A stretch of DNA of 64,000 bases from a virus (Duplodnaviria > Heunggongvirae > Uroviricota > Caudoviricetes). Positions within the stretch are counted from its first letter, which is position 1. Each line of letters opens with the position of its first letter. The stretch lies in the IMG/VR virus record IMGVR_UViG_3300020045_006153, positions 289,234 through 353,233 of that record; one strand, written 5' to 3'. This document shows, piece by piece, positions 38,549 through 64,000 of the stretch. The translations under genes and the position numbers were made by a program. Under the pieces are notes generated by a model. The model made no database searches and had not been told where the DNA came from. It saw nothing but the letters and a program-made list of their open reading frames with translations.

Positions 38549-39142
38549 TTATACAAGCACTTGTTGCAAAGCCGCCACACGCACAATATTTTCCAACTTT
38601 ACAGTACGCACACAAATCGTATGCGTCACGTCATTCTTTTTATTGTACACTGTGTTGTCTTTTTGCAACATCTTTGCTGCCGCGCCCTTTGTGCAGTATG
38701 CAGCAACTTCTTCTTCTGTTACAATTTCGTTGTCTTTTACATACACACTCTTCGCACTATTATAGTGCAAATACATGTATTCCTGTCCGCTCACTTTGTT
38801 GCGTACAATTGTATAGCAGTCAGCGTCGTGTGTAAAGCTAGCTTCGCTTGCCTCAAACTCTGCTACATTCGTTTCGTCGTTGCCGTCAACCTTTTTTGCA
38901 CTGCGTTGCACAGCCGCCACATAGTTCAGCCTGTTTGCAAACATCAGCACGCTCGCCCGTGTCACTTTTTGTATCAGCACGTCTTTGTGCGCAGCAGCAA
39001 GCGCCACCTTTGTCACCTGCGTCACGTTCGCAATCGTTGCCGTGTTGTTGTAATCGCGCAACAGTGCAGTCACTCGCTGTGCAGTTACTTTGTTTTGTTT
39101 TTGTGCAGCAATAGCAGCGCGGGCGTAAGCAAGTGTAAGCAT
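38549..39142 (-). CDS. Early hypothetical protein (197 aa, no proline)
   Basis: Own promoter/RBS. Confidence 0.7.
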   Translation of the reverse strand: MLTLAYARAAIAAQKQNKVTAQRVTALLRDYNNTATIANVTQVTKVALAAAHKDVLIQKVTRASVLMFANRLNYVAAVQRSAKKVDGNDETNVAEFEASEASFTHDADCYTIVRNKVSGQEYMYLHYNSAKSVYVKDNEIVTEEEVAAYCTKGAAAKMLQKDNTVYNKKNDVTHTICVRTVKLENIVRVAALQQVLV

Positions 39143-39228: not shown

Positions 39229-39350
39229 CTTTACATATCTTTACAATTGGGCTTTATATAGCACATTTTTGAGGTCCTGTCAAGCATCTTTACACAACTT
39301 TACATTCGTTGTTTTTCCGCCACAAGACCCCAACTTTACATAACTTTACA
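39229..39350 (-). promoter_or_regulatory. Three tandem TGTAAAG-N3-TGTAAAG boxes, one 16-bp palindrome, extra promoter
   Basis: CTTTACA-N3-CTTTACA at 39229, 39288, 39334. Confidence 0.6.
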
Positions 39351-42179: not shown

Positions 42180-43097
42180 TTAGTTAGTAAGCACATACGT
42201 AGCCAACTGCTTCCAGTTGCCGCCTGCTGCCCGCAACTTTGTAACCGCTTGCAGTGTGCGCAAGGACAACTCCTTAACGCTGTTTTGCTGCTCTTTGATC
42301 AAGTCCATTGCGTCCTGCTTGTGCTTTTGCGCAGCGGACGGCATAAAACTAACGCTTGCAACCATATGCTCCATGCGCTCAATCTTTTGCTCTGCAGTCA
42401 TCTTCAAGTCCACACAGTACGCCCGGGTAAGTAGTGCACCTGCAATTTGATTGCGTTGCATGTTGCTAATAAAAATGACGCGTCCGTGGAACACAAAACT
42501 ACGCGGCAAGTCGTCGTCCTTCATGTCCGCGTTCCAGCTAATAACGCGCTTGTCGTAACTGTCCAGCGCGCCCTTCAGCAAGTTGAGTGCAGTAGCGTCC
42601 TTCAGCACGTCATCGCAGTCGTCAAACACAAGCACGCCGTCCTTGTTCATAAACAACTCGCGGTACAGTCCTTTTGCAGTACTGTAACCCTTAATCATTT
42701 TGTAACTGTGCGCGGGCTTTTCTTCGTCTGCTTCAATTCCGCTAGCATCCACGAGCCCGTGTGCAGCAAGTGCTTCCTGTACAGTATGCGTCTTACCCAG
42801 CCCGCCTGGCCCTGTAATAACAACGCTGTTCGCTTTGTTTTCAGCAACCATGCCCACCAGCTGCGTCACGAAGCCAAAACGCTCCATAATAGGCCATTGT
42901 GCGTCAACGTCGTCTGCGGATCCTGCAATGCCGTCTTCAGTCATGCCCACTTCGTCGCTACCCAAGTCCTCGACATTCTTGTGTCCAGCCTTTTCCATCA
43001 TCTTCACAACACGAGTCTTGTCGTAGGACTTAACAACTTTGCGTCCCATGTACATGCCAACCCAATTGCCGTCTGCGTAAATAATCTTTGCTTGCAT
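42180..43097 (-). CDS. AAA+ ATPase
   Basis: GPGGLGKT Walker A; VLVFDDCD Walker B; VIFISN; ALLTR. Confidence 0.85.
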   Translation of the reverse strand: MQAKIIYADGNWVGMYMGRKVVKSYDKTRVVKMMEKAGHKNVEDLGSDEVGMTEDGIAGSADDVDAQWPIMERFGFVTQLVGMVAENKANSVVITGPGGLGKTHTVQEALAAHGLVDASGIEADEEKPAHSYKMIKGYSTAKGLYRELFMNKDGVLVFDDCDDVLKDATALNLLKGALDSYDKRVISWNADMKDDDLPRSFVFHGRVIFISNMQRNQIAGALLTRAYCVDLKMTAEQKIERMEHMVASVSFMPSAAQKHKQDAMDLIKEQQNSVKELSLRTLQAVTKLRAAGGNWKQLATYVLTN

Positions 43098-51638: not shown

Positions 51639-52211
51639 TTATGCCAGAGGATCTGTGCAAACAATTTGCTGCCCACGCAACATAAAGTTGCCTTTATGCA
51701 GATCCCAACCTATGCTTTTGTTGCATTTTGATTTCGATGCTTTCAACACCTTAATAGCCTCGCTCAGCGGTTTCGGAAGTGTCCTATTTGTAATGCCCAA
51801 CCGCGCCCGCACTGTTGGCTCTGTCATTACGTCATGGAAGTTCCTGCGATGCAGTGTATCGGAAAACCAGTAAGGTATATTGTCCTCGGCCTTTGTCAAC
51901 GGAGCCAGTTTCTCCATTGCAACCACCATCACTTCGTTTTGCTTACTTACAATAAAGCGAACCCCGTAAATCTTCGGCGTGTACGGATTGTGAGTCTTCT
52001 GCTGCGCCAGTGTTTTAACGTAGGCAATGTATCCGTCGTTGTCGCATACATGACTGATCTTGTACACAACATCGTTATCAGGTGAACCAAACACACGACC
52101 ATACAGTCCCGATCCCAAATATGTCGTCGCGCCCTGCGCCTCAATCATTTCTTCGGCCTGATCGTATGCTTCGGTACCATCGGCTGCATCTAGTGTTTCG
52201 ATTTCAAACAT
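51639..52211 (-). CDS. Minimal protein kinase-like enzyme
   Basis: YLGSGLYGRVF, VVYKI, MEKL, DLHKGNFM, TDP. Confidence 0.8.
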   Translation of the reverse strand: MFEIETLDAADGTEAYDQAEEMIEAQGATTYLGSGLYGRVFGSPDNDVVYKISHVCDNDGYIAYVKTLAQQKTHNPYTPKIYGVRFIVSKQNEVMVVAMEKLAPLTKAEDNIPYWFSDTLHRRNFHDVMTEPTVRARLGITNRTLPKPLSEAIKVLKASKSKCNKSIGWDLHKGNFMLRGQQIVCTDPLA

Positions 52212-52267
52212 CTCTGTTCCCGTGTTGTTAAAGTATGTATGTATTATAACTGCACTTTGCCAAACTG

Positions 52268-52471
52268 TCAACTGTTTTTAATAGTAGTAAAGAAACTATT
52301 TTTCAACTCACTAATCTCATCTACAGGGATATAGAAGTCAGTGAGAGGATCCCAATACTCGCCAGCCTTGGGATCGTAATATGCAACACGGCCATTGGGA
52401 TAGTGGAACGGTCCCTCGAGTCCTTTGCGGGGACCGTATTCCTTGCTGTGCTTGAAAACAACGTATCCCAT
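52268..52471 (-). CDS. Hypothetical protein
   Basis: GLEGPF..YYDPKAGEYWDP. Confidence 0.65.
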   Translation of the reverse strand: MGYVVFKHSKEYGPRKGLEGPFHYPNGRVAYYDPKAGEYWDPLTDFYIPVDEISELKNSFFTTIKNS

Positions 52472-55039: not shown

Positions 55040-57030
55040 TCACTCTCCGTAATAGCCGTAGTCTTCATCGGTGCCAAAGCCGGCACTAGCCATGCCGCTG
55101 TCAAAGTCGCCATCCATGGACTCGTCGTATTCGGGATCAACTTCTTCGTCACTATTGTCAACGAAGTAATCGTTGGACAGGCACATGTCCTTCACGCTGT
55201 CTTCACTCATGTACGCAAGCGCCATATCAGCAACAGCACGGGGATCAATGGTGCCGTCGTCCATTCCTTCGATCAGTTTGCAAGTGTATTCGCGAATCTT
55301 TGCAAATTGTGCGTCATTCATTGTATGTCCTTTGTTGCGTATGCTTGTATTATAACAGCGAATTGCTACACTGTCAACGACTAAAGTGTTGCAGTTGAGA
55401 TTGCCACGGGCTTGCTATCAATCTCGCATAGCACAACTGATACCATGTGTTCTTTGCTGCGTGGAGGGCAGATCACTTTGATTGCAGATTGCTTTGCTGC
55501 ATACAGTGATTCAGCATGGATGTTCCACACCTTTCCATTATAGAATGCTTTGTATCCGTTCATATTATTCCCCGTATGTTTCGTTGATATCACACTCGAT
55601 TTCACACATCACTTCATCGATACTTTCTGCCCACTCGCTCAATCCCACGGTGTCACAGTCGTATACTTGCTCGAAAGCACTGATAGCGGCTTTGAGGTTT
55701 TCAGCGTGGATAGCCAAGATGCGGAAGCGCTCGTTTGCTTGATCTTGCGTAAGGGTAGTTGCAGTGTGTGCCATATAGTTCCTTTGTGTTGCTATGCTTG
55801 TATTATAACAGCATAACAACACATTGTCAACAATTAAACTTCGTAACCCATCAATCGCATTGCATAGCGAAAGGGTTCGGGTTCATCGGGCTCGGACAGT
55901 CCGTAAATGAACGAGCGCACTTCTTCGCTCGTCTCGTCCTCGAACACATAGTATGCATCGCTGATGTCAGCAAGCGATTCAACTCGCTTAACAAACTCTT
56001 CGAGGGAGTTGATCATATCAGTCTTCCCACGAGGAGTCGAGATATGCGTCGGGCTCAACAGCACAGTCGTCTTCGTTCATCACGTACTCGTCATCATCAG
56101 TGAGTGCGTCGGTTCCGTTGACTTCGTAGTCAGGACCTTCGTTATCGTAGTAGTCGTCGATCTCGTACTGTTCATCGTACCAGTTATCGTTGTAGTAGTC
56201 TGTTTCCATGATCTGCTCCTTACTGTGTATGCTTGTATTATAACAGCGAATTGCTATGCTGTCAACGACTTTACATTAGTGCAGGGATGCCTTTGACATT
56301 ATACCCGTCGGCAGTTGCTTTGTGCAGCACCTCAACCCTGAGGGTCGTGCCCATACGTGCACACATGTCCAACACCCATTGCTTGTCAGCAAAGGACACT
56401 TCGTCGCCACGCCCTTCCATTGTTGCTTGTTTGATCAGGCGCAGCTTGTTCTTCTCGTAAGCGTTGAGCAATGAGTAGTTCATATCAGTCTCCCTTGGCT
56501 TTGAACTCAGCAATCATCGAGTCCATCCAAGCAAACCGTGCTTCACGGACTTTATTGAGGTCCTCGGTGACGTAAGCAACCAACCTGTGGTTCCTATTCA
56601 ACCAGCTTTCAAACGTATAGCAGCCATCGAGTCGGACTGCAATCAAGTCGAGCACGTTATCAATCTGATCGTCCAGTTGGTCCTGTTCTGTCCAGGTCAT
56701 GCCCTTGCGTACATCATCGCCGACTTGCTTAAGGACGTTGCAAATGTACGGCTGATGTACATACAATTGCAGGCGGGTTTTGCAGAGCAGTGTAGACGTT
56801 TTCATGTTGTTCCTTTGTTGCTTGCATGTATTATATTACACGCCGGCTAACTTGTCAAGCAAAGAATGCAATGCCTCAGCCTCTTCGCAAAATTCTGCCA
56901 TCGCACCGTCTGGGTAATCCTGCGGAAATGCTGCAACGGATTCAATGCTGTCCTCTACGTCTTCGAGGAGCTTGCGCCATGCACGGTAAGCAATATTGCG
57001 CTCGTCGTCTGTGAGGTTAACTGTTTTCAT
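55040..57030 (-). CDS. Run of small early ORFs (55040-55321, 55381-55563, 55565-55774, 55834-56015, 56018-56209, 56271-56483, 56485-56805, 56836-57030)
   Basis: Each led by the repeated promoter or a coupled GGAG RBS; several extremely acidic. Confidence 0.55.
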
Positions 57031-57089
57031 GTTGTTCCTTTGTGTTGCTATGCATGTATTATAACAAGGTTTTACCTACGTGTCAACTA

Positions 57090-57425
57090 CTAATCGCCCC
57101 TTGTGTCAGTATTCAATGTTGGTTGCACAGTTCTACGTATCTCTACCTCACGCTTGTGTGCAGCAACTTTACCGCGTACAACTTCATGCACGAGGATCTC
57201 TATTTCTTCTTTAGTGTCGAGAGTGCGCAGTGCAACACACAGTAGCCAATCCTTACCTTCTGTTTTAGCACGATAGAAGTGCTTTGCGGCGCGAGACTTC
57301 ACAGACTTTTGTATAGTGCTTTCCGTCTTTGCAGTAACTCCGATGTAGTTCTGCCCAGCAACACGCAACTCATATATGATATGATTTCTGTCTTCGCGTT
57401 TTTTACGTGCAACTTGTTTGTCCAT
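57090..57425 (-). CDS. Stand-alone GIY-YIG nuclease-like domain, leaderless
   Basis: HIIYELRVAGQNYIGVT..R..KH..E; ATG 6 nt after TATAAT. Confidence 0.7.
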   Translation of the reverse strand: MDKQVARKKREDRNHIIYELRVAGQNYIGVTAKTESTIQKSVKSRAAKHFYRAKTEGKDWLLCVALRTLDTKEEIEILVHEVVRGKVAAHKREVEIRRTVQPTLNTDTRGD

Positions 57426-57481
57426 ACATGTATTATAAGGCAATTTCGCCAAACCGTCAATATATTTTTGCCACTATTTTC

Positions 57482-57825
57482 GTTGTTTTCCCGCCACGCC
57501 CCAGGCACTTCAAAATTGTGGATAACCTGTGGATATGCTGTTAGTAACCTGTGGATAACCTATGTGGCAGAAAAGCCACTGTGGATAACCTGTGGATAAC
57601 TCAAAACTGTGAGATTCTCGCCACATGTTGTATAAAAGCAACTTGTGGATAACTTTGTGTGGCTTTAAAACAACAGTGGATAACCTGTGGATAAGTTTTT
57701 GCGGGAGATCGTTGTATTTTTACAACACTGTGGATAAGTTGTGGATAACTTATCGTTGTATAAAAGCCACAGTGCATAACTTGTGGATAACCAGAATCCA
57801 AATGCACTGTGAGAATTTTGCCACA
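57482..57825. repeat. DnaA-box array interleaved with 16-bp palindromes (oriC/datA-like)
   Basis: 9 perfect TGTGGATAA (=TTATCCACA) plus 3 near matches, all co-oriented. Confidence 0.85.
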
Positions 57826-57827
57826 CA

Positions 57828-57916
57828 TAGTAGAGCAAACAGGATTCGAACCTGTGAAAGAAACTATAATTATATAGTTGGCAACCCTGACCTGCCGTTA
57901 CACCCTTGCTCTACTA
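57828..57916 (-). tRNA. Degenerate tRNA-like element (possibly Gly-GCC derived)
   Basis: Acceptor-like stem and ACAGG-TTCGAAT-CCTGT T-arm; broken D/anticodon stems; no CCA. Confidence 0.45.
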
Positions 57917-57920
57917 TATG

Positions 57921-57998
57921 TGGTAGGACGAGTGGGAGTCGAACCCACGATCCATCGATTATGAGTCGATTGCTTTAGGCCATCTAAGCTATCATCCT
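57921..57998 (-). tRNA. tRNA CAT anticodon (Ile2-like; Met not excluded)
   Basis: Cloverleaf; ATCGA-CTCATAA-TCGAT; encoded CCA. Confidence 0.88.
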
Positions 57999-58007
57999 AA
58001 GCCATTT

Positions 58008-58093
58008 TGGTGCGGGTAGCCGGACTCGAACCGGCACGGATTTCTCCGAGGGATTTTAAGTCCCTTGCGTCTACCAAATTTCACCATACCCGC
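58008..58093 (-). tRNA. tRNA-Leu(TAA)
   Basis: AGGGA-CTTAAAA-TCCCT, long variable arm, CCA. Confidence 0.92.
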
Positions 58094-58208
58094 AATTAAC
58101 CTTAATAGGATGAGCCAATCTCATCTCTATACAAAACTTACTTAGCAGTACTGCCAAACTATTCTTCCCTAAACAGGCAAAGTCATTAGCAGCACTCCCT
58201 ATACATTA

Positions 58209-58237
58209 ATTATACACACATTCCCCGCCCCTGTCAA
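58209..58237 (-). promoter_or_regulatory. sigma70 promoter upstream of tRNA cluster
   Basis: TTGACA-N17-TATAAT. Confidence 0.75.
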
Positions 58238-58786
58238 CAACTACTTTACTCATAACGTATACAGCAGCGGGGTCATACACAACTACAGCAACTCTCACAC
58301 AGCAATCTATAACACTATACAGCATACTAGAGCAGCGGGGTCTATACATATAAGTCGATCCTACGTAGTGAAAGGTTAGACTTTTATAGCAACATGCGTA
58401 TATGCACATACAACGCATACACACACTACAAGTACATATGCACGTAGTATAAGGTTACAGTGTTAGCAATTGCTATGCTAGAGCAGCGGGGTCTTTGTAC
58501 TCATAGGATTTAAGACCGTTTAATTGCACGGTTTATATCGTTTATGTACATAGGTAGTGGTTCAAATAACATGGTACAAAATTGGATCAAAATGGATCAA
58601 AATGGGACGTTTTTGGCTCAGAATAAGGCAGATTCTTCGTTATTTTGGTTGGATTCTGAATAAATTTGGACTAGAAATATAAGCGTAGATTTATTATTTG
58701 GACGTTGGAGGGAGAGGCATAGTTAGAATGGTGCCAATAGGGCCCCAGGTAAAATCAATATGTTTTTCAACTATGCCCAGGTAAAA

Positions 58787-61765: not shown

Positions 61766-62844
61766 TTATATAGTGGTTTGCAAAATTTATACACTTCCGG
61801 AAACTCGGCTTTATCGGCGATACTAACTAGTTCACCGTCAGTATCGATCCAGGCAGATGGTTCTACTGATTGCACTGTCTTTTCTGTGTGTGCTTTTATC
61901 ACTTCATGTGCAAAGGCTAACTCATTGTGTCTTTTCGTGAAAGCCGCGTTGGATGTTTTACGTCGCAACATAAGGATTTCCTCATCGCTCAAAGGGTTGC
62001 GCGCCAAGTGGCTAGATGCATTTAGCACAGTAGTGATACCGCAGGCATAGATGTATTTTTCGTCTTTGGTAGCAAAGTCGCCGTCGACATACAGGCGCAC
62101 ATCGTGTGTGAAGTCTTCGGACTCGATGAATATCTGCTCGTCTCTACGATTCATTCCAGCGCACCAGGGCCCTTTGTCCACTGGCCCCTGCACTGGCTCG
62201 GCGTCATCTTCTTTGTCAAAGCCTTTGGGTCGCCGTGTGTACCCAGCATCGCGCAACTTCTGGCTGCGTGTAGGCTCGGCCTTTGGCTCACTTGGCTGCA
62301 TGGTAGTGTAGAAGCAAGTGCCATCCACAAACCCGTGCTCTGTGCTGTAGGTAACTGGCACCCACATGCCGTACGACTGATCCATATCGAGTGACTTGCA
62401 GCAAATATCTCCGCGAACCACTTTCAGCATTGCAGGTAAGGGGGTTGTCTGTCGGGCCTGGGGTGTAGCGTACAAGTGTGTTCCGTTTGGCACATCAGAG
62501 TGAAAAGTGCAGTAACCAATTTCACCGTTGACGTGATCCGCTGCCGTGGTTGCTACTGCTCCAGCCTTTGCCTCACTTGGCTGCGCGTGGGTGTAGAGCT
62601 TCACGGTGCAATCAGTTGTGGCAAATAAGCCTTGGCCAAATCTATCGTCATAAGCACTTTCCATATCGGATACTTTGATGGCATCAACAGGCTCCTGCGC
62701 TTCAATGGATGCGATGAGTGCGCGGAGGTCGGTGATTTCCTGTTTAACCACATAGTAGGTGGTGCCCTCCTCATTTTTTGCCGATTTGGCTAAGAACTCC
62801 AGAGCCTCCAAAGCAGCCCGCAGGGTAGTGAGTGTGTCAGCCAT
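61762..62844 (-). CDS. Mosaic accessory protein (Ea22/Ead-like modular type)
   Basis: Repeated QEPV/LY..QPSE(A/P)KA/PLSDEEI modules. Confidence 0.55.
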   Translation of the reverse strand: MADTLTTLRAALEALEFLAKSAKNEEGTTYYVVKQEITDLRALIASIEAQEPVDAIKVSDMESAYDDRFGQGLFATTDCTVKLYTHAQPSEAKAGAVATTAADHVNGEIGYCTFHSDVPNGTHLYATPQARQTTPLPAMLKVVRGDICCKSLDMDQSYGMWVPVTYSTEHGFVDGTCFYTTMQPSEPKAEPTRSQKLRDAGYTRRPKGFDKEDDAEPVQGPVDKGPWCAGMNRRDEQIFIESEDFTHDVRLYVDGDFATKDEKYIYACGITTVLNASSHLARNPLSDEEILMLRRKTSNAAFTKRHNELAFAHEVIKAHTEKTVQSVEPSAWIDTDGELVSIADKAEFPEVYKFCKPLYK

Positions 62845-63842
62845 TTGTGGCCTTCTTTGTGAGTGCTATGGTCAAGGCGGCGATGGCTTTGGTTCCCGAC
62901 GGGTGGACAGCGCCGACACCTTGCAAAAAGTCCAAAGCCTCCAGCCCCTGCTGTGCGGCGGCGCGGAGTATTTCCAGTTTGTCCTCCGCTTCTACGGCGG
63001 CATCTGCGTTTTGCTGTGCTGAAATCGATATGCGATCAATCTCTACATCCCGCACGTATAGCGCGGTGCGCAGGTCAGAAATCTCGGCTTGCATGGCGGT
63101 TTCCGATGTTTGCCAGTATGGGCCATCTGGCTGTCGGCGCTCTTTCCACGTCTTGATTTGCGCAGCCCGCTGGGTAGTGAGTGTGTTGTTCATTTAGTTT
63201 CCTCAAGCATCCGAAGATCGGAGGTAAGCACTTCGCACCACACTTTGTCTGGCTTGGATACCAGCGCAAACTGATGCCAATACCCATTCCCACTAAAGTG
63301 GTGGCCTAAGTAAATCAGCCGTTCAGACTGGCCTTTCCAGTTGTAGCGTTCGCCCATTTTGAATTTAATTTGCTCAGCCATTGGTGGCCTCCTTTATTTG
63401 CGGGAATGCATTGATGAGAAACTGGACAATCTTTGCGGCTTTGTCTGCGTCAATATCGATGCTGGTTTCGCTGTCGCTATACCAGTGGTCATGCGAATGC
63501 TCGGTGTATTCAAGGCAAACGTCTTTGTAAGTATCTGTCCATTGGGTTTCAACAAGACTACAGCTTGAAGTGAGTTCTACTCTTTTCTCATCAGCCATTT
63601 GTGGCCTCCTTTGTGAAGATTGCCCAAGCGTCATCATCGGTCGTGTAAGGAACGCAGGGCGTGTCGTAAGAATCTCTACCGGCTTGAAAGATTGCGCGTT
63701 TGCTTTCCAGCGTCTTCCGCAGCGCCTTGTTTTCCGCAGCCAGTATGTAATACTTTCTGTCCAGGAATTCCGCGTGCGCTATGTTCTCTTCGCGTAGCCG
63801 GTCGCGCTCTGCTTTGATTTGGTCTATTGCTTCTTGATTCAT
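62837..63842 (-). CDS. Four coupled accessory ORFs (62837-63193, 63190-63381, 63374-63598, 63591-63842)
   Basis: GGAGGCCAC RBS junctions with overlapping stop/start. Confidence 0.55.
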
Positions 63843-64000
63843 TTGGTGGCCTCCTTTGTGAGTTCTTCGTCGATGGCAGCGTCGAGTTCACTGGCTTCGT
63901 AGATGTCAAAGTGCGGGTTCTTTACAACGGCGAAACAGAAATCTTCGTTGTCTTGGATGCGCAGCCACCGATACCGTGCCGCATCTTTGCGTAGCGTGTC

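Follow-up and report, generated by a model that had tools for sequence, protein, structure and literature searches.

A phased array of DnaA boxes and palindromes at the head of the early genes of a giant T4-like phage

What does a dense cluster of DnaA boxes do at the head of the early genes of a giant T4-like phage that encodes its own DnaB-family helicase? The cluster comes from an IMG/VR virus record of 353,233 bp (37.8% GC) and lies in its final 64 kb; this stretch of 64,000 nucleotides is the window analysed here, and positions refer to it unless another record is named. A first-pass annotation of the locus had offered two readings, either a hybrid origin at which host DnaA is loaded together with a second protein, or a datA-like sponge that multiplies with the phage and stops host initiation. 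To that annotation we add the conservation of the arrangement across a clade of phages, its link to a GIY-YIG nuclease gene and a precedent in the iss region of T5.

The phage is an uncultured freshwater giant T4-like myovirus whose tail sheath shares 35-44% identity with the sheaths of PA5oct, Atu_ph07 and Phosso, values that allow a distant placement only. In the GenBank phages, we found no megablast match for positions 57000-58400 (50,697 phage records) and no tblastn match for one structural ORF. The start of the record (G000:1-170) and its end (63839-64000) share ~160 nt, with 94% protein-level identity, in a repeated gene. We read the record ends as an assembly break at a repeat and not as physical ends, and the phage map is probably circular. 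Positions 62001-64000 have 52% GC in a genome of 38% GC, and the early block at 34-58 kb has 44-47% GC.

Boxes, palindromes and surrounding genes

We found nine perfect and three near matches to the DnaA box TTATCCACA at 57517-57790, all in the same orientation, which amounts to 12 boxes in 274 bp within a gene-free stretch of 310 bp (Table 1). Every one of them sits exactly where the first-pass annotation had placed it. The entire 353,233 bp contain 12 perfect boxes, nine in the array and three elsewhere, and the reversed word, used as a control, occurs three times in the same genome; by arithmetic from the density outside the array, ~0.003 perfect boxes per 310 bp would be expected by chance. 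The description of the boxes as co-oriented and mostly paired at 11 bp also holds, since six pairs have a start-to-start distance of exactly 11 bp, corresponding to a 2-bp gap, and only the box at 57644 stands alone. A weak site with three mismatches at 57539 fills out a run of four boxes in 11-bp register. The starts of the six box groups are separated by 63, 64, 31, 54 and 42 bp. These distances are multiples of 10.6 bp, which would put all boxes on one face of the helix, and the phasing of the groups is strong (Rayleigh R 0.98 at 10.6 bp, P ~0.001 compared with random placements). The array is 61% AT, against ~62% for the genome. A coding function was rejected because the repeats advance in steps of 11 bp and occur in varying numbers, and because the ORFs across the array consist of translated repeats.

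Interleaved with the boxes are five 16-bp palindromes of the form GTKGY-N6-RMCAC (P1 to P5), each followed by a box after 0, 1, 0, 2 and 0 bp, respectively, just as the annotation had it when it described palindromes with a box within 0-2 bp. The strict palindrome pattern is found eight times in the genome, compared with 2.6 times in shuffles, and three of the eight copies are inside the array. A further palindrome close to the promoter of the nuclease gene (P0) belongs to a conserved module that is the counterpart of the single palindrome kept by relatives upstream of the same promoter. Palindromes flank the array on both sides in this genome, and we suggest that this could provide a simple route to inversion. 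Other roles for the palindromes were rejected: they are present at only 4 of 37 early promoters and are therefore not a general upstream element of these; their arms (GTTGY and GCCAC) show no consistent pairing on either strand, which argues against RNA hairpins; and their spacings are, on our reading, unsuitable for a sigma54, CRP or NtcA site. Separately, the motif GTGGCGG-N4-RCAAC (in gene orientation) occurs four times, at 38563, 38905 and 39308 in the early block and at 57482 upstream of the nuclease promoter. The copies at 39308 and 57482 lie 21-24 nt upstream of a -35, and the motif could be a regulator site.

The genes around the array are encoded on the minus strand. A genome-wide scan gave 37 near-consensus minus-strand sigma70 promoters between 34980 and 58237, and the array lies at the upstream edge of this early block, between its first promoter, that of a tRNA cluster, and its second, so that the earlier placement at the head of the early genes is borne out. 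No terminator-like site was found between the tRNA cluster and the array, and 57 bp separate the array from the -35 of the nuclease promoter downstream. The nuclease is a stand-alone GIY-YIG protein; the GIY, YIG, R, H, E and N residues are invariant among its homologues, and a comparison with the PDB sequences gave no relative with E below 1. Its start codon is 6 nt past the -10 (TATAAT acatgt ATG; 57423-57437, minus strand), and for this reason the mRNA is probably leaderless. A leaderless-type layout is common to several relatives (L241, L258, L264 and L299), and an AAGGAG leader is found in others (L251 and L297).

Table 1. Coordinates of the array, its elements and the flanking genes and promoters.
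Feature	Position	Strand	Sequence	Remark
Stand-alone GIY-YIG nuclease gene	57090..57425	-		111 aa; PF01541 matches of homologues
sigma70-type promoter	57432..57460	-	TTGACG-17 nt-TATAAT	drives GIY-YIG gene
Palindrome P0	57482-57497	-	GTGGCGGGAAAACAAC in gene orientation	promoter-proximal
Upstream module of nuclease promoter	57482..57509	-		conserved; P0 preceded by AGTGCC (57504-57509 on +)
DnaA-box array (predicted)	57517..57790	-	TTATCCACA on minus strand, TGTGGATAA on +	
Perfect boxes	57517, 57550, 57580, 57591, 57644, 57686, 57729, 57740, 57782		TGTGGATAA on +	
Near boxes	57528, 57675, 57771			1, 1 and 2 mismatches, respectively
Double boxes	57517/57528, 57539(weak)/57550, 57580/57591, 57675/57686, 57729/57740, 57771/57782	-		
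Lone box	57644	-		not in a pair
Palindrome P1	57564..57579		GTGGCAGAAAAGCCAC	abuts double box 57580/57591
Degenerate palindrome-like element	57609..57624		GTGAGATTCTCGCCAC	27-nt repeat pairs element with 57806-57832
Palindrome P2	57627..57642		GTTGTATAAAAGCAAC	1 bp ahead of box 57644
Palindrome P3	57659..57674		GTGGCTTTAAAACAAC	abuts double box 57675/57686
Palindrome P4	57711..57726		GTTGTATTTTTACAAC	2 bp ahead of double box 57729/57740
Palindrome P5	57755..57770		GTTGTATAAAAGCCAC	abuts double box 57771/57782
Degenerate palindrome	57809..57824		GTGAGAATTTTGCCAC	tRNA-proximal edge of array
tRNA cluster Leu-CAG, Met, Leu-UAA	57830..58093	-		directly upstream of array (transcription direction)
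sigma70 promoter of tRNA cluster	58209..58237	-	consensus	first promoter of early block

Several further features of the region were recorded. The tRNA-Leu(CAG) (57830-57917, minus strand) is an ARAGORN call that scores 24.4 bits in Rfam, where the cut-off is 29, and it occupies the place of the tRNA-Arg(TCT) of the relatives; this tRNA is perhaps atypical or in decay. Two words, GCTGTATA and ACAGCAGC, are found ahead of the tRNA cluster at 58260-58350 and again in most relatives (upstream regions of L241-L319). The early block also encodes an AAA+ protein of 305 aa (42180-43097, minus strand; phrog_1250) with weak clamp-loader and DnaA-like P-loop matches, which is conserved in the relative G001 and in many array-bearing contigs and is a candidate replication or loader factor. 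Another early gene (51639-52271, minus strand) matches the PHROG of the T7 gp0.7-type protein kinase/host-transcription inhibitor with E 1e-13.

The palindrome and double-box unit among relatives

The tandem-box pattern alone is too unspecific for scanning viral contigs, and the search was made with a composite consisting of a palindrome, 0-3 nt and then GTGGATAA-NN-TGTGGATAA. A search of 185,579 bacterial and archaeal species genomes gave no copy of this composite, which is present in 5 viral contigs and in 41 metagenome contigs, the latter mostly from lakes according to the record names. On 34 of the 41 metagenome contigs, homologues of early-block genes of this phage are encoded. The GIY-YIG gene is the commonest neighbour, adjoining the array in 27 of the 41; it lies downstream of R-oriented boxes in 24 of these, and in the other 3 the unit has the inverted orientation seen here. 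In 13 long contigs, a dense series of promoters begins at the array, whichever way the array is oriented. The relative G001 (357,559 bp, sheath 52% identical) has five perfect boxes and the same palindrome/double-box unit, which immediately precedes the first of 20 plus-strand early promoters. Within the unit the polarity is constant, with the palindrome on the TGTGG side of the first box, and the unit as a whole faces either way. The first-pass annotation had suggested searching relatives for the array, and such a search recovers it across the clade; judged from the contigs compared here, this clade of phages alone possesses the palindrome/double-box unit.

Closer relatives (protein 56-83% identical) provided 46 distinct gaps between the tRNAs and the GIY-YIG gene. 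No box is present in 37 of them; three contain one palindrome with a near and a perfect box, one contains a perfect pair, and a palindrome upstream of the promoter is retained in 15 of the 46. The box-free relatives were also inspected for alternative repeated ('private') box words, and none were found. Most relatives being without a box, the array is optional, and any benefit that it confers would be conditional. Box number ranges from 0 to 14 across the relatives, with 8 to 14 boxes in contigs whose nuclease is 89-100% identical to that of the relative L148, and one contig (68% identical) has six consecutive 11-bp repeats. On these comparisons, copy number is changing fast. In the sister lineages L324, L326, L335 and L336, we observed a conserved block, CGTCCACCCC...GTTCGAAC or CCTTCGAATCC, ~60-110 bp past the composite; it resembles a tRNA T-arm, and ARAGORN reported no tRNA in the one such locus scanned (L133).

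Host DnaA as the probable ligand

Host DnaA is very probably the protein that reads the boxes. The box 9-mer is the exact DnaA consensus, and the double boxes with a 2-bp gap have the arrangement required by E. coli DnaA, which in vivo needs double boxes 2-3 bp apart and whose binding is abolished by 4-bp gaps (PMC11317965). We also compared degenerate boxes that accompany perfect boxes in register, 49 distinct ones from 42 arrays. Position 5 of TTATNCACA is the most variable among them (20 changes, to all three other bases), and positions 4, 7 and 8 never vary, a pattern that agrees with the Schaper-Messer consensus as it is quoted second-hand. A search of the phage genome for dnaA, also suggested by the first-pass annotation, gave no homologue of DnaA domain III or IV. 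It is from this combination of the exact consensus, the 2-bp double boxes, the tolerance at position 5, the lack of a phage DnaA and the lack of alternative words that we infer host DnaA as the ligand. A second partner that binds the palindromes is plausible because the composite is specific to the clade. Of the earlier interpretation, the part that invoked host DnaA is thus supported, and its second protein is plausible.

The same recognition unit, two boxes 2-3 bp apart, is found at DnaA-regulated promoters of E. coli (Stringer, Fitzgerald and Wade 2024, PMC11317965). These promoters have single pairs at fixed positions, whereas the phage has six phased pairs at no fixed distance from a promoter.

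A docking or titration array and its alternatives

Our preferred explanation, to which we assign a probability of roughly 0.4, is that the array is an accessory and expandable sink or platform for host DnaA, that is, a docking or titration array. A binding platform fits better than an origin or an operator because the sites are of high affinity, their copy number varies, their orientation is free, no promoter distance is fixed and the array is dispensable. In particular, a variable number of boxes in free orientation would give the dose-like behaviour expected of a sink. There are cellular precedents in datA, which has 5 boxes in about 1 kb, and secondly in the DnaA-box clusters of B. subtilis, non-origin loci that bind, titrate or inactivate DnaA with a dose-dependent effect. 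The array resembles them in its dense high-affinity boxes away from an unwinding element, and its nine perfect boxes without origin hallmarks are in line with a locus of the datA type. It also lies past tRNAs, as does datA, which directly follows a tRNA operon whose read-through transcription traverses it (PMC10950094). Unlike these precedents, the array is carried by a lytic phage, is interleaved with palindromes and varies in copy number among relatives; it is also far denser than datA. An IHF site, which is a feature of datA, was not found, as the array contains no exact WATCAANNNNTTR, and the seven matches with one mismatch are the box junctions themselves.

In the mechanism that we propose, the array would derive from an ancestral unit, a double DnaA box preceded by a single 16-bp palindrome, which marks the upstream edge of the early-gene block in the whole clade of freshwater giant T4-like phages and which would have been amplified, and inverted, in the present phage. 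DnaA dimers would occupy the six double boxes, and dimers on the same face could join into one oligomer of ~12 subunits, while the palindromes would hold a second dimeric protein in fixed contact, at 0-2 bp, with the first box. The array would not open the DNA for replication. It would act instead as a high-affinity sink or platform in the manner of datA and the B. subtilis clusters, and as phage copies accumulate, DnaA would be withdrawn from oriC and from DnaA-regulated host promoters, including those of nucleotide-synthesis genes. One incoming genome brings only 12 sites, and titration would thus be relevant only after replication or in hosts that are poor in DnaA. The sponge of the first-pass annotation would accordingly be the half of its interpretation that fits the architecture better than the hybrid origin does.

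The strict phasing and the fixed contact with the palindromes are more elaborate than a plain sponge needs and remain unexplained by it, and for this reason we keep open a reading as a two-protein gate, which we regard as rather doubtful. The unit would then be a gate, phased on the helix, where the early block of the whole clade begins and where DnaA and the palindrome binder touch, and it would either fire a new kind of DnaA-assisted origin or link the programme of the phage to the condition of the host chromosome. One example would be the sensing, at the array, of DnaA set free when the neighbouring nuclease degrades host DNA.

A replication origin is less likely than a docking or titration array. 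As an accessory origin, a reading that we find similarly doubtful, the array would have host DnaA and the palindrome binder open or mark the DNA with the help of flanking transcription, and the phage helicase/primase would be loaded, on the model of the hybrid origins P1 oriR and RK2 oriV or the iteron origin T4 oriE. The co-oriented boxes with 2-bp gaps do resemble the DnaA-oligomerisation regions of oriC and its basal unwinding system, with the spacing of the low-affinity sites of oriC, and would support a DnaA filament. Moreover, sister lineages have convergent box groups around an A/T-rich spacer of 16-25 bp, strong promoters lie on both sides of the array, and the array is in the first-expressed region. 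Even the patchy distribution is compatible with an accessory origin, as T4-type origins are non-essential, variable and poorly conserved. Against this, we found no unwinding element (30-mers in 57400-57900 reach at most 0.77 AT, and do so in the flanks with the promoter and the tRNAs), no DnaA-trios (no run of at least 4 NA(G/T) triplets beside the boxes on either strand) and, in the array, no low-affinity ATP-DnaA sites. The AT maxima near the arrays of relatives are also modest, reaching only the ~99th percentile of their contigs, and, as a further difference from oriC, the composite does not occur in the prokaryote genomes searched (0/185,579). GC skew, which the first-pass annotation had named as a check, tracks gene orientation and gives no origin signal.

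In the hybrid origins P1 oriR, RK2 oriV and pSC101, iterons in direct repeat stand next to a rep gene and an AT-rich region. The array shares with them, and with T4 oriE, the association of DnaA boxes with sites for a second protein encoded by the element, but here the second sites are palindromes, there is no AT-rich region, and in place of an adjacent rep-like initiator or loader gene the neighbour is a nuclease. A DnaB-family helicase is encoded by the phage itself, and we know of no way for DnaA to load it. Together with the absence of the array from most relatives and the flips in its orientation, these observations make the hybrid origin the weak half of the earlier interpretation.

Control of transcription is an unlikely alternative, in which DnaA, alone or against a palindrome binder, would gate the nuclease promoter or block read-through from the tRNAs and would tie early expression to the replication state of the host. 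The short distance to the nuclease -35, the position directly past the tRNAs with no terminator-like site between, the frequent adjacency of the GIY-YIG gene in composite contigs (27/41) and the presence in some relatives of a palindrome alone 25-60 bp upstream of the same promoter are in line with such a role, and there is a precedent in the attenuation of transcription at asnC and datA by DnaA bound within transcription units (PMC10950094). However, the distance between the last box and the promoter ranges from ~30 to >250 bp, sometimes with another gene between, and the array may point either way with respect to the gene. A terminator stands ahead of the array in several relatives, terminator presence is unrelated to box number, and the nuclease promoter is near consensus, with no activator needed. 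We also rejected the idea that the array substitutes for an intrinsic terminator after the tRNAs, because 27 of the 37 box-free gaps are likewise without a strict terminator and because terminators precede the array in several relatives.

The iss region of T5 borders the pre-early genes, is untranslated and contains paired DnaA boxes and inverted repeats/palindromes, and its function is hypothetical (10.1101/866236). By analogy, partly membrane-bound DnaA could pause or anchor the incoming genome at the boundary of the first-expressed block, which we consider quite improbable here. The ingredients match, as both regions have co-oriented paired boxes, 2-3 bp apart, tied to palindromes in an untranslated stretch that borders the first-expressed genes, and the boundary position is conserved across the clade. 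In contrast to the nine perfect boxes with 2-bp gaps of the present array, T5 has 7 boxes (its relatives ~8) that are mostly non-consensus; in our check of the T5 sequence, four boxes form two pairs with 3-bp gaps, and only one of them is perfect (right-hand group). Homology to the T5 repeats was not found by megablast among the phage records, and the T5 palindrome is different. The T5 boxes lie in a terminal repeat of a genome with fixed ends; the ends of the present record overlap in a repeated gene, which points to an assembly break. Circular permutation is usual in T4-like phages, many relatives are without the array, and the T5 model is itself proposed, not proven.

The least probable alternative is that a phage protein other than DnaA reads the boxes and that the consensus match is a signal taken over by it: the composite is private to the clade, and tandem 11-bp direct repeats are also a typical layout for winged-helix response regulators, but the phage has no homologue of DnaA domain IV, the exact 9-mer recurs in >40 independent contigs with a DnaA-like tolerance at position 5, and box-free relatives have no alternative repeated words.

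We found no paper that connects jumbo phages with DnaA boxes. Among cellular regulators, DnaA-box clusters away from origins are known from datA and from B. subtilis, and T5 has been an unexplained phage example. Here, a whole clade of uncultured freshwater giant T4-like phages keeps, expands and shrinks such clusters at the head of the early genes. If the array proved to be an origin after all, T4-type phages would have their first DnaA-assisted origin. If, as we prefer, it docks or titrates DnaA, then titration or redirection by such arrays would mean that phages manipulate the host initiator and its regulon through DNA decoys and not through proteins.
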